Below are positions 1 through 15,532 of a stretch of DNA of 20,000 nucleotides, one piece after another. The notes beneath the pieces are model-generated. The model searched no databases and was not told where the DNA came from. It was given only the letters and a program-made list of their open reading frames with translations. The position numbers were made by a program, and so were the translations under genes. This DNA is from an uncultured virus (IMG/VR IMGVR_UViG_3300026057_000005) (taxonomy: Duplodnaviria; Heunggongvirae; Uroviricota; Caudoviricetes). The DNA lies in IMG/VR virus record IMGVR_UViG_3300026057_000005; one strand, written 5' to 3'. Position 1 is the stretch's first letter, and every line of letters begins with the position of its first letter.

Positions 1-296
1 TCGAACCATCGATTCTTGGCGCGATGCCGGGCGTCGTGGGATGCGGGATCGATCTGATTCACATCGACGGCAATCACACCGAGCAAGCGCACCGCGACGC
101 GAAGCGCTACCTGCCGCACGTTCGCGTCGGCGGCATCGTCGTGTTCGACGACGTCGGATGGGGCGGCGGCGGCGTCGCGCGCGGCGTCGAGTGGGCGCGC
201 GAGCATGGCTTCGTCGACTTGTACGCGCTCGGCACCGGGCTCGTCATGCAGCGCGTCGCCGACGCGTTGCATGACTTCGAGGAGGCGCTCACGTGA
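1..296 (+). CDS. Class I SAM-dependent methyltransferase (Methyltransf_24-like), probably 5'-truncated by window edge
   Basis: IDLIHIDGNH...LPHVRVGGIVVFDD matches the C-terminal half of this family; frame is open back to the window start. Confidence 0.85.
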   Translation, partial: EPSILGAMPGVVGCGIDLIHIDGNHTEQAHRDAKRYLPHVRVGGIVVFDDVGWGGGGVARGVEWAREHGFVDLYALGTGLVMQRVADALHDFEEALT

Positions 297-697
297 GCAA
301 CTCGAAGAAGACGAAGGCGACGAAGACGAAGCCAAAACGCACGCACTACCCGCGCGCGAGACGTCAGTACGATCCAGACGACGCGCCGCTGCGCATGCCG
401 CCGCGACGTCGCGACTGGATCAAGGGCACGTATCAGGTCGGCGTGTTCGTTCGCACGCCGACCGGATCGACGCTGATGATGGTCACGATGAAGCCCGCGC
501 TCGAGATCACGGTCGAGCTCGCGATGCTTGCGATGGCCGCTTCTTCGGGCGAGACGCGCGAGGCGCGGCGGTCGCGCGTCAAGGCGGCGCTCGACGAGCA
601 CGGCAAGCACGTCGACGGCGTCCCGCAGGGCGGATGGATCGACGACGACGGCATCGACGCGATCATCGCGGCGGTGCTCGGCACGAGGAAGCCGTGA
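293..697 (+). CDS. Hypothetical protein, 134 aa
   Basis: GTG start overlaps previous TGA (GTGA), GGAGG upstream, protein-like composition. Confidence 0.75.
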   Translation: MSNSKKTKATKTKPKRTHYPRARRQYDPDDAPLRMPPRRRDWIKGTYQVGVFVRTPTGSTLMMVTMKPALEITVELAMLAMAASSGETREARRSRVKAALDEHGKHVDGVPQGGWIDDDGIDAIIAAVLGTRKP

Positions 698-855
698 CCG
701 CGACGGACTTCGTACGCGAGTTGTGCAAGCTCGCCCTCAGGCACGGCCGACCCGTCATCGCGATCGACTTCGAGCCGGCGACCGACGGGAAAAGTCTTCA
801 GTTGCGCTTCCATCTCAAAAACGATCACAAAAACGATCAAGGCAACGAAGGATGA
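694..855 (+). CDS. Hypothetical protein, 53 aa (MTATDFVRELCKLAL...)
   Basis: GTGA overlap upstream and ATGA overlap downstream; 3' part of ORF 205..855. Confidence 0.65.
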   Translation: MTATDFVRELCKLALRHGRPVIAIDFEPATDGKSLQLRFHLKNDHKNDQGNEG

Positions 856-1031
856 AGCCCAACGTGTCCGAGGCCGCGCAGTCGCCGATGAACGCGCGCC
901 GCTGGAAATGCGTCCTCGCGTGCGGCCACACGCAGTGGCACACCGCGAACAAGCGACCGAAGCACGTGCACTGCGTCGCGTGCGGCATCGAGAAGGGGCG
1001 CAACGCGCCCAGAAAGCCCGGGTCTCCGTGA
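852..1031 (+). CDS. Small putative zinc-ribbon protein, 59 aa
   Basis: ATGA and GTGA overlaps at both ends; LACGH...CVAC metal-ligand pattern. Confidence 0.65.
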   Translation: MKPNVSEAAQSPMNARRWKCVLACGHTQWHTANKRPKHVHCVACGIEKGRNAPRKPGSP

Positions 1032-1678
1032 AGTTGTTCCCCTACTTCGGCGAGGGCGGTGTGTCGCGCCCGCTCGGCCTCGAGATGAGTCAGAACCGTC
1101 TCGCCGTCCCGACGTGGAGCTACGCGATGGAGATCGCTCCACCGGCGCGGATCGTCGAGATCGGGCACGCGGGCGGAGGCTTCACGACCGCGCTCGCGCT
1201 CCATGCTCACCTGATCGGTGCGGAGGTGTGGTCGTTCGACCTGTGTGCCGTCAACCAGCGCTACGCGCCGATCGCTCACCAGTTCGGCGTTCACTTCGTG
1301 CAGATCGACGTGTGGGGTCAGGCAGCGCAGGAGCATCTCGAGCGCTTGATCGCGCGCCCGGGGCCGACGTTCGTCCTGTGCGACGGCGGCGACAAGCACC
1401 GCGAGCTCGCGCTGTTCGCGCCGTTCTGCAAACCGGGCGACGTACTCGCCGCGCACGACTACGACGCGATGCACGAGCGCGATCCGTCGAGTGACCAGCT
1501 TGCGCGGCCGTGGCCCTGGTGCGAGACCCGCAAGGCGGTCGGCGACGAGGTCGCGCAAAAGCACAACCTCGAGCCCTGGCTTCAGGAGCATTTCGATCTC
1601 GCCGGGTGGCTCGCGTACCGCAAGCGCGACGTGTCGCAGACGAGAGCGCGAGAAGTCTCGCGTCCGGAAGGCGCCTGA
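1028..1678 (+). CDS. Class I SAM-dependent methyltransferase (CmcI/Methyltransf_24-like), 216 aa
   Basis: RIVEIGHAGGG (motif I), VWSFD, FVLCDGG, KPGDVLAAHDY; GTG start overlaps previous stop. Confidence 0.8.
   Translation: MKLFPYFGEGGVSRPLGLEMSQNRLAVPTWSYAMEIAPPARIVEIGHAGGGFTTALALHAHLIGAEVWSFDLCAVNQRYAPIAHQFGVHFVQIDVWGQAAQEHLERLIARPGPTFVLCDGGDKHRELALFAPFCKPGDVLAAHDYDAMHERDPSSDQLARPWPWCETRKAVGDEVAQKHNLEPWLQEHFDLAGWLAYRKRDVSQTRAREVSRPEGA
1634..1670. repeat. Hairpin element copy 1 (degenerate)
   Basis: TCGCAGACGAGAGCGCGAGAAGTCTCGCGTCCGGAAG; arms CGCGAGA/TCTCGCG at 1647-1662. Confidence 0.75.
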
Positions 1679-1974
1679 TGGAGATCGACATCCCAAGCCC
1701 AGCGTTCGAGGTTAAGTCACACGAGTTGACCGACGAAGAGGACGAAGCATTGCTCACCGCATGGCTTGCATGGTCCTCATTGAAATCTCCTGGCAACCTC
1801 GTGAATCTTCGCTGCGTTGTCGAACGCGTTCGATTCGAGGTAACGATCAGGCGCAGGACCGAAAAGATCAGCAGACTCGTCGACACTGGACGCAGACACA
1901 ACGATCGTTACATCACGAACCGCGCCATCAAGATGATCGCCAACCTCGGAGCACACGACGAGGAGGACATATGA
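1678..1974 (+). CDS. Hypothetical protein, 98 aa, lower GC
   Basis: TGATG coupling upstream, ATGA overlap downstream; hand count of 1681-1860 gives about 55% GC. Confidence 0.7.
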   Translation: MEIDIPSPAFEVKSHELTDEEDEALLTAWLAWSSLKSPGNLVNLRCVVERVRFEVTIRRRTEKISRLVDTGRRHNDRYITNRAIKMIANLGAHDEEDI

Positions 1975-2906
1975 AGCTCGCCCTGACGATCATGACCGGC
2001 CGCGCCGACCCGAAGATCGAGTGGATCACGCAGTCGCTCGACCAGCAAGCGCGGACAGGCGACGAGATCCACCTGATCGTCGTTAACGCGCTCCTCGCGC
2101 ACGACGCCTCGCGCACGATCGACGTGGGTCCGGGGCGCTCGCCGAGCCATCCCTGGCTCGCGGGCGTCACGCACACCGCGCCCAAGCCGAACGTCTGGCA
2201 GGGCGCGCAGCGCGTGACGAGCTCAGACTGGTGGGCGACGTCGAACGCACGCAACACCGCGCTCGTCGTGTGCCCCGAAGGCTACGACTACCTCGCGTTC
2301 CTCGACGATCGTTGCCGACTCGGGCCGCACTGGCTCGACGCGGTCCGCGACGCGTACACGAAGCGGGCCTCCGTCATCGCGGGCGCGTACGTGAAGACGG
2401 AGGGGCCGGCCGACGATCCGCTCCAGCAGGTCACCGCGAAGGATCATCGCGCCGGGCTTCACCCGAGCGGAAAGATCAACTGCGGTGGCGGTTGGCTCTA
2501 CGGATGTTCGTTCGCGCTGCCGCTGGCGTGGGCGCTCGAGGTCAACGGCTTCGAGGAGGCGTGTGACGGGCTCACCGGCGAGGACTACATCTTCGGCCTC
2601 ATGCTCGGCAACCGGGGGCGGCGCATCGACTACCGCACCGACATGCTCGTCATGCAGGACCGGACGCGCGGCAACGAGTCGTGCAAGGGGAGCTATCGCT
2701 GCACCGACAAGGGCGTGTCGCCGAACGATAAGTCGCACGCCGCGCTCGCGAGGTTCGGCAAGCGCGATCGCACCGACGCGCGGTTCACGCCCGACCTGAC
2801 CGCGCTCCGCGCGCGCTACCAGCGCGGCGAAGGCTTCCCCGATGTCGATCGATCGATCGAGCATCGCGACTGGTATGACGGACAACCCATTCGAGAGATG
2901 ACCTGA
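1971..2906 (+). CDS. GT-A fold (family 2-like) glycosyltransferase, 311 aa
   Basis: AGGAGG RBS at 1961-1966; SNARNTAL, YLAFLDD (DxD-like), VNGFEE...GEDY motifs. Confidence 0.85.
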   Translation: MKLALTIMTGRADPKIEWITQSLDQQARTGDEIHLIVVNALLAHDASRTIDVGPGRSPSHPWLAGVTHTAPKPNVWQGAQRVTSSDWWATSNARNTALVVCPEGYDYLAFLDDRCRLGPHWLDAVRDAYTKRASVIAGAYVKTEGPADDPLQQVTAKDHRAGLHPSGKINCGGGWLYGCSFALPLAWALEVNGFEEACDGLTGEDYIFGLMLGNRGRRIDYRTDMLVMQDRTRGNESCKGSYRCTDKGVSPNDKSHAALARFGKRDRTDARFTPDLTALRARYQRGEGFPDVDRSIEHRDWYDGQPIREMT

Positions 2907-2953
2907 TCGCAGACGAGGACGCGATAGGATCGCGTCCGGAAAGATGACCTGAT
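2896..2953. repeat. Hairpin element copy 2, bracketed by 12-bp direct repeat AGATGACCTGAT
   Basis: Direct repeats at 2896-2907 and 2942-2953; GGACGCGAT-AGG-ATCGCGTCC at 2917-2937. Confidence 0.9.
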
Positions 2954-3523
2954 ATGCGCAAGACCACCGTGACCTGCGATCGCTGTAGCCGAGACGTCGA
3001 TACCGGCTACCTCGAGCTCTCGATCGACGGCTATCGAAAACTACACACGTGCTCCATCTGCACGCCACTGCTCGTCGAATTCTTCGAGGCCGCCGGACGA
3101 AGCTACGCTGACGGTCTCGGATCGCTCACTCGCCATCAGCACGTCGAACGACTCGAAATCGCGAAGGACAACGACACCATCGCCGAACGGAACGGCGGAT
3201 TACAGATCTCCAGCGACGGAGGTCGGCTGCCGCGGGTGATCCAGTCCATCGACGTGATCGGAGACCTCGACGGGTGGGAGATTTGCGACGTGTCCGTCGG
3301 CAATCGTAGGCAGTTCTCGCCCGATGGGCCGCGCTCTAATGCGGAGTGGATGGCGCAGTTCTCCAACATGAGCAAGGCGGACGCCGTCATGCCTCGCATG
3401 AAAGTAGCCATCGTCTTGATTCGTGTTGGTGATCCGATTCAGGTCTCGAAAGCGCCCGCGTTCGAGATCACGTTCCTGCGCTCCGGCTTCGCCGATCTCG
3501 CCGACGCCGAGGACAAGTTGTGA
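2954..3523 (+). CDS. Hypothetical protein, 189 aa, with N-terminal CxxC...CxxC zinc finger
   Basis: TCDRC...TCSIC; beta-rich C-terminal half; more A/T-ending codons than neighbours; GTGA overlap downstream. Confidence 0.75.
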   Translation: MRKTTVTCDRCSRDVDTGYLELSIDGYRKLHTCSICTPLLVEFFEAAGRSYADGLGSLTRHQHVERLEIAKDNDTIAERNGGLQISSDGGRLPRVIQSIDVIGDLDGWEICDVSVGNRRQFSPDGPRSNAEWMAQFSNMSKADAVMPRMKVAIVLIRVGDPIQVSKAPAFEITFLRSGFADLADAEDKL

Positions 3524-3741
3524 CCAAGCTCGAGGCGGCCGAAGGCGAGCTCAAGCACGCCGCGAAGGCGTACGGCAAGGCCGTCGGCGACGACGCCGTC
3601 GCATGGCGCGAGCTCGCGCGCGCGGCCCTGCGCTACGCCGCGGCGTGGACCGAAGACAGCGCACGCAAGGCAGGGTCGGGGCTGCGCCAGGCGGGCGACT
3701 TCATCGCGGGGTTGCGCGGACGCGCACGGCGCACCGAGTAG
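3520..3741 (+). CDS. Hypothetical helical protein, 73 aa
   Basis: GTGA overlap; Ala-rich amphipathic sequence; GC-rich third positions. Confidence 0.7.
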   Translation: MTKLEAAEGELKHAAKAYGKAVGDDAVAWRELARAALRYAAAWTEDSARKAGSGLRQAGDFIAGLRGRARRTE

Positions 3742-3754
3742 CCTCATAGGCGAT

Positions 3755-3825
3755 GACGCGAATTTTCGCGTCCGGAAGATTGCTAAGATTCGCAGACGAG
3801 GACGCGAAATTTTCGCGTCCGCAAG
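3755..3825. repeat. Hairpin element copies 3 and 4 in tandem (46-nt offset)
   Basis: GACGCGAA-TT-TTCGCGTC at 3755-3772 and GGACGCGAAA-T-TTTCGCGTCC at 3800-3820, intergenic. Confidence 0.9.
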
Positions 3826-3836
3826 AGGAAGTGACC

Positions 3837-4001
3837 ATGCCGAACCCCGTCAAGACGACCATGAACCTTCGCGTGCTGCCGAGTGTCAAGCAGCGCGCGA
3901 AGGACGCCGCGAAGAAGGCGCATCAATCGCTGACCGCGTGGCTCACGACGATCATCGAAGCGAACACGCCCGACACCGACGAGAAGCGGACTCGGCGATG
4001 A
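3837..4001 (+). CDS. Ribbon-helix-helix DNA-binding protein (Arc/CopG/HicB-like), 54 aa
   Basis: TMNLRV strand followed by two helices (SVKQRAKDAAKK; SLTAWLTTII); GAGGA RBS. Confidence 0.8.
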   Translation: MPNPVKTTMNLRVLPSVKQRAKDAAKKAHQSLTAWLTTIIEANTPDTDEKRTRR

Positions 4002-4192
4002 GCTCGCGCGCAAGGATGCTCGCTGTCGCCGCTGCGTCTATCGGGCTGCCGACCTGGATGGACGACAACTTCGAGCCACGCATCATCGTGCCGCCGTCGA
4101 TCCCCAAACCGAAGACGCCGCGCGACGCCGCCCGAGACGACCGGCCGGTGCATGTCTCGAACCGGCGCGCGAAGAAGCGCCGCGGCTGGTAG
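3998..4192 (+). CDS. Hypothetical basic protein, 64 aa
   Basis: ATGA overlap with RHH gene; ends NRRAKKRRGW. Confidence 0.65.
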   Translation: MSSRARMLAVAAASIGLPTWMDDNFEPRIIVPPSIPKPKTPRDAARDDRPVHVSNRRAKKRRGW

Positions 4193-4228
4193 GGGTGCCC
4201 GAACGAGGGCGCGATTCGACCGCTCGAA

Positions 4229-4237
4229 TGGTACGAT
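4229..4237 (+). promoter_or_regulatory. Putative extended -10 (TGG-TACGAT), leaderless transcript
   Basis: TGnTAnnnT ends 6 nt before ATG 4244; no Shine-Dalgarno sequence. Confidence 0.5.
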
Positions 4238-4243
4238 GCCCCC

Positions 4244-7234
4244 ATGTCGGACTTCCAGATCGCGCCGCCGGGCGCGCCCGTCGACCTCGGCTCGGCGGAT
4301 ACACTCATCAACCAGAACGGCGGGCCGCCCGTCCCCGCACTGGCGCTCGTCGGAACCGACCAGAAGACGATCCTCGGCAGCGGATCGCAGTACGACCCGC
4401 TCCGCACGAACCCCGACGGGATCCCCGTCACCACCGACAAGACGACGATCGGTGGCGACGGCACGATCGCGAGCCCGCTCGCCGTCATCCCACTCGGGCT
4501 CTCCGAGCGCGTCCCGGTCCTGACCGATGGCCTGACCGCGGTCGGTGACGGCACCGTCGGATCGCCGATCACCGTCATCACGGGCGGCGGCGGCGGCGCC
4601 GTCGTCGCCGACAACGTCACGCTGACCGGGTTTGGCACGCCGCTTGTCCCGCTCACGATCAAGCAGGTCGAGCATGACGGCACGATCGCTGGCGCGGGCA
4701 CCGTTGCGTCGCCGCTGACGATCCCCGCCGGCGTTGTCCATGTCGCCACGGACGGCACGACCCTCGAGGGCAACGGGACCTCGGGGACGCCGCTCAAAAT
4801 CAAGCAGGTCGAACACGACGGCACGCTTGCCGGCGCGGGCACCGTCGACTCGCTGCTCGCCGTCGTTCCGGCGGCGCTCGCTGGCGACGTCGCGGTCGCC
4901 GTCGACGCGAGCTCGATCGCTGGCGACGGCACGTCGGGCACCCCGCTTCATACGGTCGCCGGCGGTACCGCCGTCGCGACCGATGCGACGATGACGGGTA
5001 ACGGCACGACTGGATCACCGCTCTCGGTGAGCGGCATCCCGTCGACGGTCAAGACCGACAACACGATGTCGGGCACGGGCTCGATCGGCTCGCCGCTCTC
5101 CGTCGTCGCGGTCGGCGCACCAGCGGGCTTCCTCACGCCCGAGCAGTTCGGCGCCGTCGGGAACGGCGTCACCGACGATCGCGCCGCGATCCAGGCGATG
5201 CTGAACGCCGCCGGCGCGCTCAACGGGCTCGCGAATATTCGGTTCGGTCCCAAGGTGTACATCGTCGGGCGCTCGAGCACGAACGCGTTCTGTCTCGACC
5301 TGCCCAACGGTAACCTGACGATCGAGGGCGTCCCCGGGCGCTCCACGCTCAAGCAGCCGGCAGGGCTCCCCAGCACGACGGTCGTGATTCTGCGCATCGA
5401 TCAGAAGGCGAACGTGATCGTTCGCGGGATGACGTTCGACGGCAATTGGGGCAATCGCGCGACCTACGTCGCCGCGGCGTCCAGCGGGCTAACGCTCCCC
5501 CAGGCGACGATCAACGTCGCAACCACCGAAGGCTTCGCCACGTCGGGCACGATGACCGTCCAGAGCAGCACGGGCCCCCAGGTGGTGACGTACACGGGCG
5601 TCACGGCGACGAGCTTCACCGGGTGCACCGGAGGGGTCGGAGACATCTTCGGTCCTACCACGACGGGGTTCCAGGGCTCGCTCGTGGGATACGTCGACGC
5701 GCAGACCGGCATCAACCAGGGCAACCAGACCGGCAATCCCACGAACCACGGGATCATGCTGCGCGGATCGACCAACGTCACGATCGAGAGTTGCCTGTTC
5801 ACGAACAACTACGGCGACGGAATCTGGGTGGGCGCGAGCTCGACCGATGCGACGGTGGGGTGCAAGAACACGAAGATCCTCGGCTGCAACATCGACATGT
5901 CGGGACGCAACAGCATCTCGATCGCGCAGCTCGCACAGGACACGTACGTCGAAAAAACGAACTGCACGTACATGTTTCAGAACGCGCTCGACATCGAGCC
6001 CGGCGGGCAGCCCGTCAAGAACACGATCGTCGAGGACTGTCACCTGGGAATCTGGTGGAACCCGAGCAACGCCGGGCGTACCGCGAACATCGCGCTCAAC
6101 ATCAAGGGCGGCGAAGATCTCCAGCCGTCGCCGCAGTTCCAGACGCAGAAGGTGCGAATCCGGGACTGCACGATCACGGGATCGATCAACATCGCCGACG
6201 CGACGGACATCATCATCGAGCGCTGCCGGATCGTAATGGACTGGCCGGGCCCGGGCACCGGCGACGTCCCGATCGGGATCAACTTCAACGTCGATGACGT
6301 TCAGATCCTCGAGAACTACGTCTACGACTCCGTGCACGATCCGGTTGTCCATACGGTCTCGATCGCGGTCTACGATCGGGGGAGCTCGTCGGGCGTACTC
6401 CAGCCGCAAGGCGTTCGGATCGTCGGCAATCGCGTTCACAGCCGAAACGGCAACGGCGGCATCGCCACCGCCGGCGTCGGCGGCAACGCCGGCGCGACCG
6501 GAACCGCGACGGGGATCACCTCGACGACGCTGACCGACAGCGGCGCGACCTGGATCGTCGGGCAGTTCGTCGGCCATCAGGTGCTCGTCGGCGGCGTGCT
6601 CTCGACGATCTCGGCGAACACCGCAACCACGCTTAGCCTCCCCTTCGCCTGGTACACGCAGACGGGCGGCCCCGCGAATACGCCAGCCCTGGGCACGTAC
6701 TCGATCCTGCCGACGGGGCGCTACATCGAGATCGCCAGCAACGAGATCGATCTCACCGACGACGGAAAGGGGCAGGGCCTCTACGGCATCAGCCTTCAAT
6801 CGTCCGCGGCCGGCGGTCGCCTCCACGTCCACGACAACCAGATCCAGAACGCGAACGGCGACGCTGTCCGCGTGAGCTTCGGGGCCGTCGCCATCGCGCT
6901 GGTGCTCGTGAACAATATCGCGTTCGATAATCAGGTCGTCCCGACCTGCGTCAACACGATTCACTTCACCTCGAACCCGGCAGCCAGCGTGACCCGGCTC
7001 GTGCTGCGCGAGAACAACGCGGGCGATGGCGTGACAACCGACGTCGCGGGGATCACGTCGGGCACCTGGATCACGGCGGACGGCTATCCTCCTCAGTTCG
7101 CCGGCTTCGGATCCCCGGAGGGTGTCGTGACCGCGATCGTGGGATCGACCTACAATCGCCTGAACGGCGGGGCGGCAACCACGCTATACGTGAAGGAAAG
7201 CGGATCCGGGAACACTGGATGGATCGGCAAGTAG
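4244..7234 (+). CDS. Tailspike/receptor-binding protein with right-handed beta-helix (pectate lyase-3-like), 996 aa
   Basis: PEQFGAVGNGVTDDRAAIQAMLNAA helix-start motif; repeated NVTIESC/NTIVEDC/DIIIERC rungs; C-terminal GSPEGVVTA..GSTY.R..GG..TTLYVKESG.GNTGW motif typical of tailspikes. Confidence 0.88.
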   Translation: MSDFQIAPPGAPVDLGSADTLINQNGGPPVPALALVGTDQKTILGSGSQYDPLRTNPDGIPVTTDKTTIGGDGTIASPLAVIPLGLSERVPVLTDGLTAVGDGTVGSPITVITGGGGGAVVADNVTLTGFGTPLVPLTIKQVEHDGTIAGAGTVASPLTIPAGVVHVATDGTTLEGNGTSGTPLKIKQVEHDGTLAGAGTVDSLLAVVPAALAGDVAVAVDASSIAGDGTSGTPLHTVAGGTAVATDATMTGNGTTGSPLSVSGIPSTVKTDNTMSGTGSIGSPLSVVAVGAPAGFLTPEQFGAVGNGVTDDRAAIQAMLNAAGALNGLANIRFGPKVYIVGRSSTNAFCLDLPNGNLTIEGVPGRSTLKQPAGLPSTTVVILRIDQKANVIVRGMTFDGNWGNRATYVAAASSGLTLPQATINVATTEGFATSGTMTVQSSTGPQVVTYTGVTATSFTGCTGGVGDIFGPTTTGFQGSLVGYVDAQTGINQGNQTGNPTNHGIMLRGSTNVTIESCLFTNNYGDGIWVGASSTDATVGCKNTKILGCNIDMSGRNSISIAQLAQDTYVEKTNCTYMFQNALDIEPGGQPVKNTIVEDCHLGIWWNPSNAGRTANIALNIKGGEDLQPSPQFQTQKVRIRDCTITGSINIADATDIIIERCRIVMDWPGPGTGDVPIGINFNVDDVQILENYVYDSVHDPVVHTVSIAVYDRGSSSGVLQPQGVRIVGNRVHSRNGNGGIATAGVGGNAGATGTATGITSTTLTDSGATWIVGQFVGHQVLVGGVLSTISANTATTLSLPFAWYTQTGGPANTPALGTYSILPTGRYIEIASNEIDLTDDGKGQGLYGISLQSSAAGGRLHVHDNQIQNANGDAVRVSFGAVAIALVLVNNIAFDNQVVPTCVNTIHFTSNPAASVTRLVLRENNAGDGVTTDVAGITSGTWITADGYPPQFAGFGSPEGVVTAIVGSTYNRLNGGAATTLYVKESGSGNTGWIGK
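4370..5105 (+). repeat. About 10 intragenic copies of G-x-G-T-x-x-[ST]-P-L (~24-aa period)
   Basis: GDGTIASPL, GDGTVGSPI, GAGTVASPL, GNGTSGTPL, GDGTSGTPL, GNGTTGSPL, GTGSIGSPL and variants; IKQVEHDGT(I/L)AGAGTV occurs twice. Confidence 0.85.
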
Positions 7235-7242
7235 GAAACACC

Positions 7243-9555
7243 ATGAGCAAAAAGTCAGTACTCGTCACGTCGCTCATCGCGATCGCGCTGGTCGCCACCA
7301 TCGTCGAGGCGGCGACCGTAGGGCCCTATCCGTCGGTCGGGCTCTACTGGTTCGACAACGTCGATCCAACGACGGGCGCCGGGATGTCGGCGCCCGCGAA
7401 TCAACTCCTGGTTCGCACCGACACGCCGAGCATCTACTACAAGAGCGGCCCCGCGGATACCGCATGGACGAAGATCGGCAACGGTGCTGGCGGCGGCGGG
7501 ACCGGCACGGTCACGAGCGTCGCGTGCGGCACGGGTATGTCCTGCTCGCCGAGCCCGATCACGACGACCGGCACGGTCAACGTCAACCTCACGCCGACGA
7601 CGTGCGCCGCGGGGACCGCCGAGATCACGACAGCCGCGAACGGCACGAGCACGTGCTCGACGTTCGTCAACGCGGTCGGGACCGGGCTCTCGCTCTCGGG
7701 GTCGACCGCATCCGTCAACCTCACGCCGACGACATGCGCCGCGGGCATGGCCGAAATCTCGACCGCGGCGGACGGTACCAGCGCGTGCGCGTCGTTCGTC
7801 ACCTCGAGCTCGCTGACCGCCAACACGATCCCGAAGGGAACGGGCGCGGGCGCGCTCGCGAACTCCTCCTCGACGGATGACGGCACGACCGTCACGATCG
7901 GCGGCCAGGTCACCGTCGTCGAGGCAAGCGGCAACACCACGATCCCGGGCTTCCTCGCCGCCGCAGGGCAGTTCGTGCTGTCCGGCACGATCAGCCCGAC
8001 GGCGTTCGCGGGCACGCGCGTCGACAACTACAACCCGACCGGACTCTCGACGACCTACACGATCCAGCAGAACGTCACCTCCGCGACGACGATCACGGGG
8101 CTGACGGCGCAGCCCGCCGGCACGGAGATCAACTTCCGCAACACGGGCGCGTCCGCCGCGCTCACGTTCTCGAACGCCGACACGAACTCGCTCGCTGCAA
8201 ATCGATTCTCGCTGCCCGGCGGCGTCAACTGGATCCTCCCTGCCGGATCGTCGCTGCTCTTGCGCTACAGCAGCGCGGGCGTCTGGCGCCTGGTCGCCAG
8301 CTCGACGACGGACTTGCCGACGCTCAACGTCGACAGCGGCTTCTCGGTCGCCGGTGGCAGCACGCTCCTTCACAGCGCGACGTCGGTCACGAGCTCGTTC
8401 ACCGCGTCCGCCGGTTCGACATTCACGTCGGGCACCGGAGGCATCCCGATCACCGCCGGCAACAACCATAGCCCGATCACGACGGGCTCGGAGGTCATTC
8501 AGGTCAACGAGACCGGCGTCTATGACACGACGTCGGGCGCGATCACGGCGTACGGCATCCAGGCGCAAGCGACCGGAAATCGCACGTCCGGCGCGAACCC
8601 GCTGACCAACGTCGCGCTGTACGCGACCGCGACCACCGCGCAGACCAACCAAGCACTCGTCTGCGATGCCGGCGACGTCATCCTTAACAACACGAGCGGC
8701 ACGACGACGGTCAAGGGCGCTGCGAGCTTCACGTCGACGACATCGACGACGTTCTCGAACGGCCCGACCGGGTTCAACACGTACGGCGGCACGCACCTCG
8801 AGTGGGTCGATGACTGGCTCGTCGGTGTTCTTCAGCCGACCTCGGCGCTGAACTGGCCGCTCGGCACGACCTGGATCGCGTCCGCGAATGCGTCGAACTT
8901 GTTCACCGTCGGCGCGGGCACGACGTCGCGTCCTGGCATCCTCGAGATGACCACCTCGACGAGCACGACGGGTCAGGCCGAGATCGTTACGTCGACCAAG
9001 TTGGTCGACTTCGGATCGGGCAACTGGTCGTTCGAATGGGCCGGCGGGTGGCCGACGCTCTCGGTGTCCGGCAACTTCTACGCGTCCGTGATCGGCTTCG
9101 GGAACACGACCGACGTGAACCCGACGAACGGCTGTTACTTCCTCTACGATCAAGGCAACGTCGCCTCCGGCGGGCAGAACGGATCGAACACGAACGACCT
9201 TGAGGCCGTCTGCGCCAACGGCGGCACGCGCACGATCTACCTGCTGAACGGATCCGGAAACTGCGACAACTCGTTCGCCAAGGGCACGGTCCTCGTCTCC
9301 GCGCTGACCCTGCCGAACACGAACATCGTGCACTTGCTTGTCAAGATGACCGCGGCGACCAAGGCCGAGTTTTACACCGTCTCCGGGACCGTGCAGACCA
9401 AGGTATGTGAGATCGCCACGAACATCCCTTCCGGCGCGTCGAACCTGACCGGAGTCGTATTCGACATGATCAAGTCGACGGGCGGCACGGCGAGGACGTT
9501 TGACACGGACTACACGCGCATCGCCGTCGATCTCACGAGCGCGCGCTCTCCCTGA
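7243..9555 (+). CDS. Thr/Ser/Gly-rich mosaic fibre/adhesin-like protein with N-terminal signal peptide or anchor, 770 aa
   Basis: AGGA RBS; MSKKSVLVTSLIAIALVATIVEA-A leader; GTGTVTSVA linker; NYNP..TITGL..AANRF..RY...WR fibre module; beta-rich C-terminus. Confidence 0.75.
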   Translation: MSKKSVLVTSLIAIALVATIVEAATVGPYPSVGLYWFDNVDPTTGAGMSAPANQLLVRTDTPSIYYKSGPADTAWTKIGNGAGGGGTGTVTSVACGTGMSCSPSPITTTGTVNVNLTPTTCAAGTAEITTAANGTSTCSTFVNAVGTGLSLSGSTASVNLTPTTCAAGMAEISTAADGTSACASFVTSSSLTANTIPKGTGAGALANSSSTDDGTTVTIGGQVTVVEASGNTTIPGFLAAAGQFVLSGTISPTAFAGTRVDNYNPTGLSTTYTIQQNVTSATTITGLTAQPAGTEINFRNTGASAALTFSNADTNSLAANRFSLPGGVNWILPAGSSLLLRYSSAGVWRLVASSTTDLPTLNVDSGFSVAGGSTLLHSATSVTSSFTASAGSTFTSGTGGIPITAGNNHSPITTGSEVIQVNETGVYDTTSGAITAYGIQAQATGNRTSGANPLTNVALYATATTAQTNQALVCDAGDVILNNTSGTTTVKGAASFTSTTSTTFSNGPTGFNTYGGTHLEWVDDWLVGVLQPTSALNWPLGTTWIASANASNLFTVGAGTTSRPGILEMTTSTSTTGQAEIVTSTKLVDFGSGNWSFEWAGGWPTLSVSGNFYASVIGFGNTTDVNPTNGCYFLYDQGNVASGGQNGSNTNDLEAVCANGGTRTIYLLNGSGNCDNSFAKGTVLVSALTLPNTNIVHLLVKMTAATKAEFYTVSGTVQTKVCEIATNIPSGASNLTGVVFDMIKSTGGTARTFDTDYTRIAVDLTSARSP
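7582..7800 (+). repeat. Intragenic duplication of a 29-aa two-Cys unit
   Basis: VNLTPTTCAAGTAEITTAANGTSTCSTFV (7582-7668) and VNLTPTTCAAGMAEISTAADGTSACASFV (7714-7800). Confidence 0.9.
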
Positions 9556-9581
9556 TTCGGGCTATTCCGTTCCAGCAAACG

Positions 9582-9623
9582 TCAAGCCGATTCGGGCTTG
9601 AAACCAACCGAATCGTGTACAAT
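9582..9623 (+). promoter_or_regulatory. Intergenic inverted repeats plus -10 TACAAT (leaderless)
   Basis: TCAAGCC-N6-GGCTTGA at 9582-9601; CGATTCGG/CCGAATCG at 9588/9608; TACAAT 9618-9623 is 5 nt before ATG 9629. Confidence 0.55.
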
Positions 9624-9628
9624 GGGCC

Positions 9629-10363
9629 ATGACCGACATCGCCGCTTCCGTGCCCGATCCGACCTTGACCCCGATTCCGGTTCCGAGCTCGGCCACCGCG
9701 CCGACGCCCGGCTACAAGACGTCGGAGGCGTGGCTCACGTTCCTGACGCTCGTCGTCGGCGCGATCCCGAACTCGGGCCTCGTCGCCGATGCGCCGGTCG
9801 CGGCCAAGATCGTCGGCATGGCGATCGCGGCGCTCTCGGTGCTCAACTACACGGCGAACCGTACGTCGCTCAAGCGTGCGCACCTGGCGAGCGACGCGAC
9901 GTCGACGGCCTCGTCGAGCTCGTCGAAGCTTCAGGCGATCGCCGGCAGCGTCGCCGCGGTCGGCGTCCTCGTGCTGGCGATCCTGTACTCGGGATCGCCG
10001 GCGAGCGCGTCGCCCTCGAAGGCGAGCTCGGGCGCAGGCCCGAGCGCAGGCGTGATGTCGCATGGGCTCCTGACCGGGGCCTTGGCGACCCCGACGAGCG
10101 AGCTCTGCGCCGGGCGCGATCTGAATCGCCTGGTCGACGGCAAGTCGCTCCTCGTGACCGTCGCCGATGATCTCGTCGCGACGGACTACGAAGCGTCGAT
10201 CAGCGCCCTGATCGTGAAGCTCGGCGATCGCGACGTCGCGTGCGCGACGCTCGTCGTCGCGAAGATCGCCAGCGCCGGCATGACGAGCGGAGCCGCAGCG
10301 CTCTCGCCGCTCGACGCACGCGCGCGCTCGACGATCGAGCGGAACCACTGGGGGTCGCTGTGA
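9629..10363 (+). CDS. Holin-like membrane protein with extra C-terminal helical two-Cys domain, 244 aa
   Basis: PGYKTSEAW followed by two hydrophobic helices and Y...R..LK, resembling small phage membrane/holin-like proteins; third TM (IAGSVAAVGVLVLAILYS); located after tail genes. Confidence 0.6.
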   Translation: MTDIAASVPDPTLTPIPVPSSATAPTPGYKTSEAWLTFLTLVVGAIPNSGLVADAPVAAKIVGMAIAALSVLNYTANRTSLKRAHLASDATSTASSSSSKLQAIAGSVAAVGVLVLAILYSGSPASASPSKASSGAGPSAGVMSHGLLTGALATPTSELCAGRDLNRLVDGKSLLVTVADDLVATDYEASISALIVKLGDRDVACATLVVAKIASAGMTSGAAALSPLDARARSTIERNHWGSL

Positions 10364-10812
10364 GCACCCGAGCGTTCAGCATCCTCGTCTCGATCATCTT
10401 CGCGATCGGCGGCACGCTCTGCGTTGGCGTGCAGGTCTACGGATGCACGGGGACCGGGAAGGGCGCCATCATGACGGGCGCGTTCGAGGCGTGCGCCGAG
10501 GCCGATCTCGGACGCGCGGTCGGCTCGACGAACTTACTCGGCGCGGTCGCCGCGATCGTCAACGAGAACACCACCGGCCTCGAGTCGGATCTGACCGCGC
10601 TCGCGGTGCGCGTCGGCATCGCCAGCGTGCAGTGCGCGATCGTCGCCGTCGAGGCCGTCCTCGCATCGACGGCGAGCGCGCCGGGGTCGGGCGGGTCGAC
10701 GACACCGACGCCGACGCCGACGCCGTCGACAGCGTTTCATCCGCCGTCCGGGCTAACGCGCGCGCTCGCGTGGAGCGCGTCCGCGACGGCGCCCGCCCGC
10801 GCGAAGCCGTAA
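10360..10812 (+). CDS. Putative lipoprotein/membrane-anchored protein, 150 aa, paralogous to C-terminus of upstream gene
   Basis: GTGA overlap; hydrophobic leader ending in lipobox-like VYGC; shared CA..DL.R.V...LL..VA...CA pattern; PT-repeat linker. Confidence 0.65.
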   Translation: MSTRAFSILVSIIFAIGGTLCVGVQVYGCTGTGKGAIMTGAFEACAEADLGRAVGSTNLLGAVAAIVNENTTGLESDLTALAVRVGIASVQCAIVAVEAVLASTASAPGSGGSTTPTPTPTPSTAFHPPSGLTRALAWSASATAPARAKP

Positions 10813-10920
10813 CGCGATCGTGCTCGGGGTGGGCTCGAAATCCACCTCGCTGTGCCCAACTAAGACGTGGGCAAGCGCAACCCGTTTGCGGGGAGCACGC
10901 GAGGCGAGATAGCCTGAGCC

Positions 10921-11937
10921 ATGTACAACATCGCACGCCGTCAAGGGATCCACTCCATGAGCGAAGTCCACATCTCGAAGAAGCGGCACGTCGAGCGACC
11001 GCAGCACGGCGGCGCACCGTCCAAGCATCCAACGACGCCGCCGCGGAACAAGCCCCGGCAGCCGAAGCCGCCGGCAAAGCCGACAAAGCCGACCAAGCCG
11101 ACCAAGCCAGCGCCACGCCCGCCGCGCGCTCCGGCGCCAACGACGCCGGCGATGACCTGTCCGGCACCGTCGCCGACCCCGGCGCCCGTGCCGCCCGCCC
11201 TGGCGACCATCCCGCGCATGCGCTTCGGCGTCGTCGACCTCTCGGGTTCGCTGCCCGCGGCCGAGCTCGCCGCGTACGCCGCCGCACAGCAACGTCAGTT
11301 GCGCGAACACTACGCGTCGGTGTTCGACGGCGACGGCGCGAACGACGAGGTGCGCGTGACGACGACGACTGCGCCGCTCGTCGCCGGCGAGATCGCGATC
11401 ATCCTGCACCCGAGCTCGGCCGGCGCCGACGAGGGGGCCCTCGGCGAGCACGGGCTCGCCGCCAATGGCAGCGGCGTGCCCTCGATGAACATCTACCTCG
11501 ATCTCGCCGACAAGTACGGCGAGACGTGGACATCGATCGCGTCGCACGAGGTGCTCGAGACGCGCGCCGACCCGCGGCTCCACGCGTGCGTCGAGCTCGA
11601 CAACGGCGAGATCTGGGATCGCGAGATCTGCGATCGCGTACAAGCCGAAATCGTCATCGTCGACGGTGTGCCGCTGTCCAACTTCAACACGCCGGCGTGC
11701 TTCGAGCCGACCGGCGCACCCGGGGAGTTCTACGACTGGCTGAAGCTGTCGACGAAACCGAACGAAGTACGCCCCGGCGGCTACGCGCAGCAGTACACCT
11801 CGGGCAAGGGCTGGACGCAGGTCAGCGAGGCGCGCGGCTACCGCGGCGAGCTCGCTGCCCTCGGGCTCTCGCGTGGCACGCGCCGGCGCGTGCGATCCCG
11901 TGTCGCCGCCTACCGCAACGCGGCCGGCCTCGCGTAG
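10921..11937 (+). CDS. Pro/Lys-rich N-terminus plus putative metal-dependent hydrolase domain (HExxE...DP), 338 aa; alternative start 10957
   Basis: GALGEH, IASHEVLETRADP, EICDRVQ, LSNFNTP motifs; KPT repeats at N-terminus. Confidence 0.65.
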   Translation: MYNIARRQGIHSMSEVHISKKRHVERPQHGGAPSKHPTTPPRNKPRQPKPPAKPTKPTKPTKPAPRPPRAPAPTTPAMTCPAPSPTPAPVPPALATIPRMRFGVVDLSGSLPAAELAAYAAAQQRQLREHYASVFDGDGANDEVRVTTTTAPLVAGEIAIILHPSSAGADEGALGEHGLAANGSGVPSMNIYLDLADKYGETWTSIASHEVLETRADPRLHACVELDNGEIWDREICDRVQAEIVIVDGVPLSNFNTPACFEPTGAPGEFYDWLKLSTKPNEVRPGGYAQQYTSGKGWTQVSEARGYRGELAALGLSRGTRRRVRSRVAAYRNAAGLA

Positions 11938-12059: not shown

Positions 12060-12599
12060 ATGGGGGATCCAGGCACGCACAAGCGCAAGCCGTCGAGCAC
12101 TCGGCCGCCGGACGACGTCGAAGTGTCGCGACGAACCGAGACGTCGCGCGTCGACATCGGGCGCGGGCTGCAACGCATCGAAGGCAACAGCAAGAGCAGC
12201 AACAGCGCGTATATCGTCATCGCGCCCAAGGAAGAGGCGCCGGCGAAGGCGACGACATCGGCGAAGCGAATGACCAAGGTGGAGAGCACCGAGGAATCGC
12301 GCAAGCGCGTCGTCGATGATCTCGGGACCGAGCGCGAGGAGATTCGCGGCCACGGGCACGGCGCCGTCAAGTACATCGTGCGCTCGCCGGTGACGGATCC
12401 GGTTGTCGTGCAGCACGTCGGCGTGCTCGAGTCGGGCGCCGACGTCGACGTCGACGATGATCACGCCGAGGCGACGAACACCCCGAACGTACCCGACGAC
12501 GAGACCGAGACGCTGTACGGAAGATGGACCGACGACGAAGATGCCGACGAGAGCGCCGACGACGTCGACGACACCACCACGAGGAACCGAACACGATGA
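12060..12599 (+). CDS. Hypothetical, likely disordered protein with acidic C-terminus, 179 aa
   Basis: 3' part of ORF 10443..12599 with coding-like codons; Asp/Glu-rich tail; ATGA overlap with next gene. Start uncertain. Confidence 0.65.
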   Translation: MGDPGTHKRKPSSTRPPDDVEVSRRTETSRVDIGRGLQRIEGNSKSSNSAYIVIAPKEEAPAKATTSAKRMTKVESTEESRKRVVDDLGTEREEIRGHGHGAVKYIVRSPVTDPVVVQHVGVLESGADVDVDDDHAEATNTPNVPDDETETLYGRWTDDEDADESADDVDDTTTRNRTR

Positions 12600-12988
12600 A
12601 GCTCTACTGGCACGACATCGGCACGAGCGGCGATCGGTATCCGTTCGCGATTCGCGAGCTCACGCACGCGCGCGGCGTGTACGTCATCCGCGACAAGAGC
12701 ACCAAGAAGGTGTTGTACGTCGGCTCGAGCGCGAACCGCTTGTACTCGACGGCGACGCGACACTTTCAGGACTGGCGCCGCAACAAGAAGTGGTGGAGCG
12801 GCGCGTACGGTGCGCAGCATGATCCGGGCACCGTGTACCAGCGCGCGAAGTGCGAGCTCGCGGTCGAGGTGATGGAGAAGAAGGCCGATCACCTGAAGCG
12901 CGAGGCCGAACTCATCGAAAGGCTCGAGCCGCGGGACAACCTCGTGCAACGGCCCGATGGCGGCAACGACGGCGAGGTTCCGTTTTGA
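12596..12988 (+). CDS. GIY-YIG nuclease superfamily protein, 130 aa
   Basis: GVYVI...VLYVGSS, RHF, EAELI...PRDN; GAGGA RBS; ATGA overlap. Confidence 0.85.
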   Translation: MKLYWHDIGTSGDRYPFAIRELTHARGVYVIRDKSTKKVLYVGSSANRLYSTATRHFQDWRRNKKWWSGAYGAQHDPGTVYQRAKCELAVEVMEKKADHLKREAELIERLEPRDNLVQRPDGGNDGEVPF

Positions 12989-13184: not shown

Positions 13185-15515
13185 TCAGTTCGCTTCGCCG
13201 GTCAGGAACTTCGCGAACACCGTCTTACGACCCGAGATCGTGAAGTCGACGATCGCCTTGGTCTCGCGGCCGTTGCCCGACACCGCGATCACCTTGCCGA
13301 GGCCGTGGATCTCGTGGCTGACCTGGTCGCCCGAGCGAAACACCTCGGCCGCGGGCACGTCGGCGTCGACCCGATAGACCGGCTCGTCGTCGTCGTTGCC
13401 GCGCTGATCGAACTCGTCGCGGCGCCGCCGCGGGGTGCCCGCGGTCGCGCCCGAGCCGCGCGCCCAGTTCGCGCGCGGCGGCGTGGTCTGTCCCGAGCGC
13501 CGCGACTGCACGACGCTGTCGGGTGGCAGGTCGAACAGAAACCGCGAGGGATCCTGCATGCGGATCTCGCCCCACACGCGGCGGGTGCGCGCGTGCGACA
13601 GGAACAGGCGCTGGCGTGCCCGCGTGATCGCGACGTACGCGAGCCGCCGCTCCTCCTCGAGCTGCGCGTCCTCGCTCGTCCCTTCGCGCTCGCGCAGCGA
13701 CGGGAACAGCCCGTCCTCGAGGCCGGTGATGAACACGACCGGCCACTCGAGGCCCTTCGCGATGTGGATCGTCATCAGCACGACCGACTCGCCGCTCGCC
13801 GGGGCCGTCTCGTCGGACGGCGCCGCCAGCGCGATGCGCTCGAGGAACCCCTCGATGCCTCCGAAAACGACCGGCGGATCGTCGGCATTCGACGCCGTGG
13901 ACGGGGTTCCCGCCGCGTCGTCACCAGCCTCCGCGCTCGTCGCCTCGTCCGCGGCCGCGTCGTCGTAGTCCGACGCGATCGTCACGAGCTCGGCGAGGTT
14001 GTCCAGACGATCGCGCGACTCGCTCGAGCTGTCGGCCTCGAGCTTCGCGCGGAGCCCGCTGCGCTCGATGATCTGGATGATCGTCTCCGCCACCGACGCG
14101 CCCTGCTGGATGACATCGACGAGACCGTCGACCAACTCGACGAAGCCGTGCAGCTTGCGGCGCGGCGCGGTCCCGATGCCCGCGACCTCGGCGCGCACCG
14201 CGCCGCGCGCGGCGTCGAGCAGGCCGGCGCCCGTCGCGCGCTCCGCCATCCGCAGGCGCTCGACCGTCGCGTCGCCGACCCCGCGCGCGGGCACGTTGAC
14301 GACGCGCTCGAACGCGGAGTCCGCGCTCGGGTTCGCGAGCAGGCGCAGGTACGCGACGACGTCCTTGACCTCCTTGCGCTCGAAGAACGACATCGCGCCG
14401 ACGACCTTCGCCGGGATCCGCGCGGCGCGCAGGTGCTCCTCGAGCACGCGCGACTGCGCGTTGGTCCGGTAGAGGATCGCGATCTCGCCCGGCGAGTACG
14501 ACGTCTCGTCGAGGATGCGCCGGATCGCGTACGCGACGTGATACGCCTCGCCGCGCTCGTCGCCGGCCTGGTACTGCTCGATGAGGTCACCGCCGCCGAG
14601 CTCGGTCCACAGGGACTTCTCGTGGCGATCGCGGTTCTTGCGGATGATGCCGTTCGCGGCGTCGAGGATCGTCTGGGTCGAGCGGTAGTTCTGCTCGAGC
14701 TTGATCACGCGCGCATCCGGGAAGTCGCGATCGAAGTCGAGCAGGTTGCGCGGCTCGGCGCCGCGCCACGCGTAGATCGACTGGTCGTCGTCGCCGACGA
14801 CCGTCAGGTTGCGCGTGGCCTCGGCGAACCGGCGCACGAGGTCGTACTGCACGAGGTTGGTGTCCTGGAACTCGTCCACGAGCACGTGGCGGAACCGCAC
14901 GCGCAGCACCTTGGCGATCTTCTCGTCGTCGAACAGCGCGCGGACCTTGAGCAGCAGATCGTTGAAGTCGACCGCGTTCTCCTTCGCGAGCTGCGCCTGA
15001 TAGAGCGGATAGATCTTCTCGATCACGTCGTCGAACGGGCCCTCGCCGGCTCCGCCGTGCGCGCGCGGATCCTCGCCGCGATTCTTCGCGCGATCGAAGC
15101 GGGACAGCACCGTGCGGGCGGAGACCGCGTCGTCGAGGCCGGTCTCCTTGAGCAGCCGCTCGACCAGCTTCACCTGGTCGTCACCATCGAAGATCACGAA
15201 GCTGCGCGTCAGCCCGACCGCCTCGGCGTGCCGGCGCAACAGGCGCGCGCACGTCGAGTGAAACGTGCCGATCCACATCGCATCCGCACCCGCACCGAGC
15301 ATCGCCCGCAAGCGCGCGCGCATCTCGCCGGCCGCCTTGTTCGTGAACGTGACGGCCAGGATGTTCCACGGCTCGGTCCCGGTCTCGACCAGCCGCGCGA
15401 TGCGCTGTACGAGCACGCGCGTCTTGCCCGTGCCAGCTCCCGCGAGGACCATGAGCGGCCCATCGCTGTGCTCGACGGCGTTGCGCTGCTCCTGGTTGAG
15501 CGGGATCCGATCCAC
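13185..15515 (-). CDS. pcrA: ATP-dependent SF1A DNA helicase PcrA/UvrD, ~776 aa (GTG 15515; alternative 15527)
   Basis: LNQEQ Q-motif, AGAGTGKT, VTFTNKAA, TFHS, DEFQDTN, VGDDDQSIYAWRGA, LEQNYRS, LYRTNAQSR, MTIHIAKGLEW, EEERRLAYVAITRA; C-terminal Tudor-like domain (FRSGDQVSH..HGLGKV). Confidence 0.96.
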   Translation of the reverse strand: MDRIPLNQEQRNAVEHSDGPLMVLAGAGTGKTRVLVQRIARLVETGTEPWNILAVTFTNKAAGEMRARLRAMLGAGADAMWIGTFHSTCARLLRRHAEAVGLTRSFVIFDGDDQVKLVERLLKETGLDDAVSARTVLSRFDRAKNRGEDPRAHGGAGEGPFDDVIEKIYPLYQAQLAKENAVDFNDLLLKVRALFDDEKIAKVLRVRFRHVLVDEFQDTNLVQYDLVRRFAEATRNLTVVGDDDQSIYAWRGAEPRNLLDFDRDFPDARVIKLEQNYRSTQTILDAANGIIRKNRDRHEKSLWTELGGGDLIEQYQAGDERGEAYHVAYAIRRILDETSYSPGEIAILYRTNAQSRVLEEHLRAARIPAKVVGAMSFFERKEVKDVVAYLRLLANPSADSAFERVVNVPARGVGDATVERLRMAERATGAGLLDAARGAVRAEVAGIGTAPRRKLHGFVELVDGLVDVIQQGASVAETIIQIIERSGLRAKLEADSSSESRDRLDNLAELVTIASDYDDAAADEATSAEAGDDAAGTPSTASNADDPPVVFGGIEGFLERIALAAPSDETAPASGESVVLMTIHIAKGLEWPVVFITGLEDGLFPSLREREGTSEDAQLEEERRLAYVAITRARQRLFLSHARTRRVWGEIRMQDPSRFLFDLPPDSVVQSRRSGQTTPPRANWARGSGATAGTPRRRRDEFDQRGNDDDEPVYRVDADVPAAEVFRSGDQVSHEIHGLGKVIAVSGNGRETKAIVDFTISGRKTVFAKFLTGEAN

Positions 15516-15532
15516 GGAAAGAACCACCGGAG

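Follow-up and report, generated by a model that had tools for sequence, protein, structure and literature searches.

In the 20,000-nt stretch of the uncultured virus record IMGVR_UViG_3300026057_000005 of IMG/VR (the window, by which the whole stretch is meant) a hairpin-forming unit of about 36 nt occurs in four copies on the plus strand and nowhere else in the 20 kb. This unit probably represents a new family of dispersed palindromic mini-insertions, similar to the repetitive extragenic palindromes (REPs) and the Rickettsia palindromic elements (RPEs), in an uncultured Kofleriaceae-like lineage of myxobacteria. As the comparisons of loci described below show, units have been inserted, either one at a time or in tandem pairs, where a stop and a start codon lie close together and in some cases within genes. 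The range of small palindromic insertions of the REP/RPE kind, among them copies translated in frame, would thereby come to include the Haliangiales/Kofleriaceae myxobacteria. A literature search returned no report of such units in these myxobacteria, and the text of the REP survey that we draw on here (PMC3733652) does not mention Myxococcota.

Four copies of the unit in the window

The initial annotation of the window had described four copies of a hairpin element in front of genes. All four are real and lie on the plus strand at the places given, apart from the extent of copy 3, which had been taken for a 5'-partial copy. It is of full length with a diverged head (TCATAGGCGA) and is matched over model positions 1-36 of the covariance model introduced below. 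The distances of copies 1, 2 and 4 to the following start codons (7, 10 and 11 nt) had been read correctly, but copy 1 is not intergenic: it is situated in frame within the last 15 codons of a methyltransferase open reading frame (ORF), where it encodes SQTRAREVSRPE. Copy 2 begins directly after the TGA of gene 1971-2906, and copies 3 and 4 form a tandem pair, the first unit of which starts 3 nt after the TAG of gene 3520-3741. The coordinates are collected in Table 1.

The exact hairpin pattern GACGCGA-N3-8-TCGCGTC was found three times in the window compared to a mean of 0.04 in 200 shuffled sequences, none of which reached three matches; copy 1 is missed by this pattern because its left arm reads GAGCGCGA. 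The 18-mer consisting of head and arm, searched with up to three mismatches, gave three matches as well (mean 0.26; 1/200 shuffles reached three). The 13-mer of right arm and tail alone was not significant, with four matches, a mean of 2.85 and 64/200 shuffles reaching four.

A covariance model, R1, was built from an alignment of nine copies, namely the four of the window and five from two metagenome contigs (L187 and L188, see below). These nine training copies score 42-63 bits, by construction, with the window copies at 48.4-59.5 bits. The next match on the sense strand of the window scored 11.5 bits with the filters switched off. An independent copy in the genome G072 reached 38.7 bits, compared to at most 29 bits for everything else.

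Table 1. Copies of the unit, flanking repeats and neighbouring genes. Positions refer to the window unless a contig is named
Feature	Position	Strand	Remarks
Copy 1	1634..1670	+	Loop type GAGAAGTCTC; R1 53.7 bits; ends 7 nt before ATG 1678
Copy 2	2907..2943	+	Loop type ATAGGAT; R1 52.8 bits; ends 10 nt before ATG 2954
Copy 3	3744..3778	+	Full length, diverged head; R1 48.4 bits
Copy 4	3790..3825	+	Second unit of tandem pair; R1 59.5 bits; ends 11 nt before ATG 3837
Left copy of exact 12-nt direct repeat AGATGACCTGAT	2896..2907	+	Abuts copy 2, overlaps it by 1-2 nt
Right copy of exact 12-nt direct repeat AGATGACCTGAT	2942..2953	+	Directly before ATG 2954
Head-to-tail pair, contig L187 (1351 bp)	599-665		Sense; ends 16 nt before ATG of Dam methylase gene
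Copy c, contig L187	1082-1117	opposite to Dam methylase gene	Inside that gene
Head-to-tail pair, contig L188 (2115 bp)		-	Antisense to both neighbouring ORFs
Methyltransferase gene	1028..1678	+	FtsJ-like Pfam match; 216 aa in protein collection, start 1028 inferred from that call
Small gene	1678..1974	+	No family assigned; GC 54.2%, GC at third codon positions 0.68
Gene of 311 aa	1971..2906	+	Weak glycosyltransferase-like PHROG match
Gene of 189 aa	2954..3523	+	No family assigned; GC 60.5%
Gene 3520-3741	3520..3741	+	Ends in TAG, 3 nt before copy 3
Ribbon-helix-helix (Arc/HicB-like) protein, 54 aa	3837..4001	+	Weak matches, E ~1e-3; downstream of tandem pair

Architecture and folding of the unit

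The consensus of the nine-copy alignment is TCACAGACGA-GGACGCGA-(centre)-TCGCGTCC-GGAAG. The unit thus consists of an unpaired conserved head of 10 nt (TC[G/A]CAGACGA), a GC-rich stem of 8 bp formed by GGACGCGA and TCGCGTCC, and a purine-rich tail (GGA[A/G]G). One or two variable complementary pairs lengthen the stem to 8-10 bp in all, leaving a centre of 1-4 nt. The gap between the constant arms amounts to 4-6 nt (6, 5, 4 and 5 nt for the window copies in genomic order). The arm-adjacent positions change between the copies yet stay complementary: three copies have GA/TC there, one has T/A, five have A/T or AA/TT, and the G072 copy has GC/GC. Both the variable length of the centre and the complementarity next to the arms had been noted in the initial annotation, and the compensatory changes of the loop-proximal pairs bear out its preference for a hairpin or palindrome over an operator of fixed spacing. 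As far as can be judged from the alignment, the arm-adjacent complementarity favours a structure formed by one strand. Palindromes can also stay perfect by templated repair, and complementarity is no proof of selection on RNA. The stem of the first L188 unit contains one G-T combination that corresponds to a G-U pair only in the RNA of the sense strand, which is a single case. Elsewhere in the 8-bp stem, copy 1, copy 3 and the first unit of L187 have mismatches with no compensating change, as expected of decaying copies.

The predicted hairpin energies range from -10.7 to -17.9 kcal/mol as RNA and from -7.8 to -12.3 kcal/mol as DNA. Single copies with their flanks fold no better than shuffled sequences (z -0.4 to -1.8). 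The tandem pairs fold beyond the shuffles (z -4.7 to -5.1), because the two units cross-pair. A search of the whole window on both strands against Rfam gave no match at E values up to 1. None of the seven terminator-like calls in the region 1-4400 coincides with a copy of the unit, the tails reading GGAAG with no T-run, and no promoter-like site was called in the same region.

Copies outside the window

Pattern scans of IMG/VR returned 5, 87 and 0 loci, none of which proved to be a true copy on inspection, and the phage database yielded no megablast match. Among the species genomes of GTDB, about 185,000 in all, the first two scans led to 93 and 43 stretches that were inspected and contained no true copy; the third led to six stretches, of which only the place in G072 is real. 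The scan of the JGI metagenomes gave four loci, two of them real (L187 and L188). The other two, L189 and L190, were rejected, scoring 24.7 and 22.0 bits and lacking both the head TCGC and the tail. In 138 genomes of the Kofleriaceae the frequency of the bare hairpin is that expected by chance (one site in each of 11 genomes, compared to five for the reversed control). R1 detected one convincing copy in this set, at G072:C3:7061-7096 (Haliangiales), and none in the other 137 genomes; four further matches of 27.5-29.1 bits were discarded since the hairpin was absent on inspection.

Contig L187 carries a tandem pair upstream of a Dam methylase gene and a third copy inside that gene. The Dam gene is preceded, at L187 142-682, by a ribbon-helix-helix-like ORF and a small hydrophobic one, and the C-terminus of the hydrophobic ORF spans both tandem units in the same frame (SQT[K/R]TREVSR) as is used in the tail of the window methyltransferase. 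In contig L188 the pair occupies the entire space from the stop codon of an outer-membrane-protein-like ORF to the GTG that starts a Gfo/Idh/MocA-type oxidoreductase ORF, names which are our reading of the translations and were given with no family scan. The L188 pair is 74.7% identical to the window pair over 83 nt. At L188 850-930 the outer-membrane-protein-like ORF ends with ...RVAM-stop and the oxidoreductase ORF starts with VIRVA; the RVA codons (CGC/CGG GTC GCG) lie 5-6 nt outside the array and are possibly an old, slightly decayed flanking duplication.

Further copies are indicated by the sequencing run from which the window originates. Its Logan contigs break at copy 2 (pieces 1-2939 and 2911-11699). 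Among the six X1 loose ends listed (285 more exist), five lie on copies 2 and 4 and lead into unrelated sequence. One X1 loose end continues as a further copy with the loop AAGA, which is not followed by ATG, GTG or TTG within 30 nt after the tail. Altogether the source run holds at least 4-5 further contexts of the unit. In a second run, X2, the window is represented only by fragments of low depth. For practical purposes, the unit leads to broken assemblies and to gene calls with a spurious extension at the C-terminus.

Evidence for insertion

Identical 12-nt direct repeats, AGATGACCTGAT, stand on either side of copy 2 and look like a target-site duplication. Removing one repeat together with the unit restores the sequence ...ATGACC-TGA-T-ATG. 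The duplication rebuilds the old junction, and therefore genes 1971-2906 and 2954-3523 were adjacent before copy 2 arrived. In Markov simulations a stretch of 20 kb yields about one 12-mer repeat in close proximity, but not one at two boundaries named beforehand. A relative of gene 1971-2906 on the IMG/VR contig L099 has no hairpin at the corresponding place, but at 41% identity it is too distant to date anything.

Three other copies can be compared with homologs that do not contain the unit. The methyltransferase ending at 1678 has 16 residues after the conserved ...AGWLxYRKR motif, 12 of which are encoded by copy 1. In 12 homologs (54-62% identity) the tail after YRKR comprises 0-5 residues in 11 and 10 residues in one, and the 12 residues encoded by copy 1 are absent in all 12. 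Similarly, the closest homolog of the Dam methylase of L187, P0001 (80% identity in the alignment), shows a gap of exactly 14 residues at the segment GCCGTSGREDFASS; this segment corresponds to the antisense unit, an in-frame insertion of 42 nt.

The copy in G072 belongs to the reading frame of an acyl-CoA ligase gene, at its 3' end and about 15 nt before a TGATG junction. A query with the flanks of this junction matched in 134 of the 138 family genomes. For the comparison 13 public orthologous loci were used, a fourteenth from an unpublished genome being left out. The unit is absent from all 13 junctions, which read ...MYAD followed by 2-4 residues and the stop codon, and subtracting 39 nt (the unit plus one GCCG) from the G072 sequence gives MYADDT-stop. 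The three copies embedded in ORFs thus each add a multiple of three nucleotides (36, 39 and 42 nt). With the exact 12-nt duplication at one insertion and the three dated "empty sites", the unit offers a small, clean study case, from which it could be learned how insertions of this kind get into tight operon junctions and leave translation intact.

Position and orientation of the copies

Counting each tandem array once, seven independent events can be distinguished. Five of them (copy 1, copy 2, copies 3/4, the L187 pair and the G072 copy) are in sense orientation 7-16 nt before a start codon, and two are antisense, namely copy c inside the Dam gene and the L188 pair. Six of the seven are situated at tight gene junctions. 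Copy 4 and the second unit of the L187 pair have a better Shine-Dalgarno (SD) sequence downstream of their tails.

Alternative explanations

The predominance of sense copies close to start codons raises the question whether the unit could be a functional module which controls translation initiation or coupling and is shared by the mobile region and its host. The start-associated sequences (SAS) and extended SAS (ESAS) of Cluster K phages would be the model for such a module. As described in the sections used here (Pope et al. 2011, PMC3203893), ESAS are inverted repeats with variable spacers of 4-13 bp directly upstream of an SD-containing motif; SAS/ESAS are locked in orientation, virtually always located at gene starts (3-7 bp upstream) and absent from the host genomes. 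The layout of the window agrees with this description in the inverted repeat with a variable spacer, the SD-like motif, the ATG of non-structural genes and the single orientation (PMC3203893). At all three window loci the copies are in sense and end 7-11 nt before an ATG, the L187 pair ends 16 nt before the ATG of dam and the G072 copy about 15 nt before TGATG, so that five of the seven events lie within 16 nt, and the purine-rich tail (GGAAG/GGAGG) is present. However, there are also antisense copies, an intragenic copy and a copy at a conserved chromosomal junction, and the defining features of SAS/ESAS (PMC3203893) are thereby broken: copy c of L187 is antisense and intragenic, and the L188 pair is antisense to both of its neighbours. 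Moreover, the additional copy in the source run has no start codon in the 30 nt past its tail, two copies have the better SD sequence past the tail, the orthologous ligase junctions of 13 out of 13 public relatives function in the absence of the unit, and the Dam and methyltransferase homologs lack it. We therefore regard such a module as rather unlikely. A shared translational control element, one of the two roles suggested in the initial annotation, remains unproven, as five of the seven events are in sense within 16 nt of a start and two are not.

The unit could also be a duplex-DNA operator for a dimeric regulator, for example the ribbon-helix-helix protein encoded at 3837-4001, and the copies would then constitute the regulon of a mobile element. 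The tandem palindromes stand directly upstream of this gene, L187 encodes a ribbon-helix-helix-like protein about 200 nt upstream of its tandem pair, and the palindromes are symmetric nearly to the centre. We nevertheless consider this very unlikely, as the spacing of the constant arms varies from 4 to 6 bp, the tandem pairs are unequal in the distance between their centres (about 46, 33-36 and 30 bp), and copies occur inside a coding sequence and at the ligase junction with no ribbon-helix-helix gene nearby. In addition, no promoter-like site was called in 1-4400 and the conserved asymmetric head would be left unexplained. Recombination sites bounding gene cassettes in the manner of the attC sites of integrons, the other proposal of the initial annotation, would explain the lower GC content of the genes after copies 1 and 2. 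These genes are indeed AT-richer (54.2% GC for 1678-1974 and 60.5% GC for 2954-3523, compared to 67.5% for the window), as had been stated, and folding into a single-stranded hairpin is possible. The 12-nt duplication, however, brackets the element alone and not a gene, the older junction being restored without it; no integrase, recombinase or transposase domain was found in the window; and the unit is found inside the Dam gene and at conserved chromosomal junctions with no gain of a gene. attC sites measure 57-141 bp and have a core of the GTTRRRY type, whereas the unit of 36 nt is shorter and contains no such core. On the basis of these sequence comparisons the cassette reading is largely refuted, and we assign it hardly any probability. 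The observations that the initial annotation had named as refuting its proposal have largely been made: methyltransferase homologs lack the tail, and the unit also has unrelated chromosomal, antisense and intragenic contexts.

Comparison with known palindromic elements

According to the parts of the survey mentioned above (Di Nocera et al. 2013, PMC3733652), REPs are palindromes of 20-40 bp with an unpaired conserved end and a short tail; they are located beside the 3' ends of ORFs, overlap stop codons and are sometimes found in frame inside genes. RPE-4 and RPE-6 of Rickettsia are listed there as CGTC REPs, families characterized by the tag CGTC (TGTC/CCTC), a stem whose first two pairs are A/T and a tail reading CCA. 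Measured by these descriptions, the unit resembles REPs in its length of 20-40 nt, its unpaired conserved end, the 8-9-bp stem, the 4-5-nt loop and the short unpaired tail, and likewise in occurring singly or grouped beside the 3' ends of ORFs, in overlapping stop codons, in having some in-frame intragenic copies and in forming loop and stem subtypes (PMC3733652). The nine-copy alignment contains a constant stem of 8 bp with 1-2 variable pairs, and six of the seven events are at gene junctions, with three copies embedded in ORFs in frame.

There are also differences from the published descriptions (PMC3733652). The 10-nt head TC[G/A]CAGACGA takes the place of the GTAG or CGTC tetranucleotide in its published position, although it holds a GACG 5' of the stem, the mirror of the arrangement 5'-CGTC-stem. 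The stem starts with GG/CC instead of A/T, the tail is GGAAG instead of the CCA of the CGTC families, the arrays are head-to-tail tandems in contrast to the predominant head-to-head dimers of REPs, and the copy number is apparently low. Because head, first stem pairs and tail all differ, the unit is apparently not a member of the GTAG/CGTC superfamilies as set apart by these text descriptions (PMC3733652).

With the RPEs the unit shares the presence of in-frame copies embedded in ORFs, three in our case. RPEs of the RPE-1 type are selfish palindromic units that lie within protein-coding genes, keep the reading frame and add a peptide segment to the product when translated. The unit differs from them in having no sequence relation to them, in the phylum of its host and in having most copies at junctions and not inside genes. 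The mycobacterial interspersed repetitive units (MIRUs) of Mycobacterium tuberculosis are 46-100 bp long, are not simple hairpins and often occur as head-to-tail tandems at tight stop/start junctions of operons. Both the unit and the MIRUs are short, prone to tandem arrangement and situated at packed operon junctions, with no sequence relation between the two.

A possible course of insertion

If the units are dispersed mini-insertions, the copies that persist may be those doing little harm. In the frames in which it is read the unit contains no stop codon, and its tail, rich in purines, could replace the SD sequence that it displaces. Tolerable frames together with an SD-like tail would explain why most copies are in sense, 7-16 nt before a start codon. 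After transcription the hairpin (-11 to -18 kcal/mol as RNA) may secondarily stabilize or punctuate polycistronic mRNA, as REPs do. The conserved asymmetric head beside the hairpin corresponds to the layout used by single-strand transposases (HUH/Y1, RAYT-type), but the clear 12-nt duplication at copy 2 does not fit such a mechanism.

Several observations speak against REP/RPE-like mini-insertions. Classical REPs are present in more than 100 copies per genome, and the family described here is very rare in the sequences searched, with a single true copy among the species genomes, two small JGI contigs and none in IMG/VR. The published GTAG/CGTC tags and A/T-first stems, as far as described in the sections used (PMC3733652), are missing from the unit. 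No RAYT or other transposase was found in the window, and G072 has five weak Y1_Tnp matches, none of which is flanked by an R1 match. The flanking duplications are inconsistent: copy 2 has one of 12 nt, G072 perhaps one of 4 nt (GCCG), and the remaining five events have none. Finally, the crowding of four copies into 2.2 kb of a single operon, each of them in sense and just before a start codon, is more orderly than would be expected from random insertion.

It is conceivable, though in our estimate unlikely, that the unit is a self-compensating mobile hairpin with its own SD-like tail which specifically targets coupled stop/start junctions. In that case the native coupling would be replaced by a module of hairpin and SD sequence, the unit would be a chromosomal or mobile counterpart of the phage ESAS/SAS, and the translation of operons would be rewired by it. 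Correspondingly, we doubt that the preference for start-proximal positions reflects targeting or function and not survival.

Genes of the window and the probable host

The window has a GC content of 67.5%. Genes on the plus strand run through the first 12.6 kb with short or overlapping junctions, for instance the TGATG in which the stop codon of the methyltransferase ORF at 1678 overlaps the next start. All sizeable ORFs of the window were scanned against Pfam and PHROG. These scans identified several methyltransferases, the weak glycosyltransferase-like gene, the small ribbon-helix-helix protein, large beta-helix proteins, a GIY-YIG domain, a UvrD helicase and a C5 DNA methylase; no integrase, transposase, recombinase or Y1 nuclease (Y1_Tnp) domain was detected in them.

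The complete UvrD/PcrA-type helicase (13185-15662, minus strand) is mostly 66-81% identical to uvrD of Kofleriaceae/Haliangiales, and the host is therefore placed there. None of the window neighbours of uvrD was found beside uvrD at the loci of 64 relatives (3-kb flanks). The window gene may be a second copy on accessory DNA or mark a rearranged locus. Gene 1971-2906 has a 41%-identical relative on one IMG/VR contig (L099) and none that was found in the species genomes. Since the flanks of uvrD are not syntenic and gene 1971-2906 is without a relative in the species genomes, much of the window is probably accessory DNA.

Two very large ORFs on the plus strand, 4244-7234 (996 aa) and 7219-9555 (778 aa), contain internal DNA repeats (units of 58-68 nt at 4344-4947 and a 94-nt pair at 7581-7806). 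Pfam gives a right-handed beta-helix match for the first ORF and PHROGs give none for either; the two proteins could resemble tail spikes or surface adhesins. A C5 cytosine DNA methylase is encoded at 16275-17261 (minus strand), a weak GIY-YIG ORF at 12524-12988 (plus strand) and a Methyltransf_24 fragment at 3-296 (plus strand). Together with the methyltransferase ending at 1678, the C5 methylase and the Methyltransf_24 fragment amount to an unusual density of methyltransferases in 20 kb. On L099 (56.5 kb) a Methyltransf_24-like gene directly precedes the relative of gene 1971-2906 (5777-6900), and the window counterparts of this gene pair are separated by about 1.7 kb of other genes. Gene 1971-2906 itself contains an exact 12-nt direct repeat, CCTCGCGCACGA, at 2093-2118, the two copies being 14 nt apart, and the source run includes a low-depth contig variant with an extra G after position 2100.

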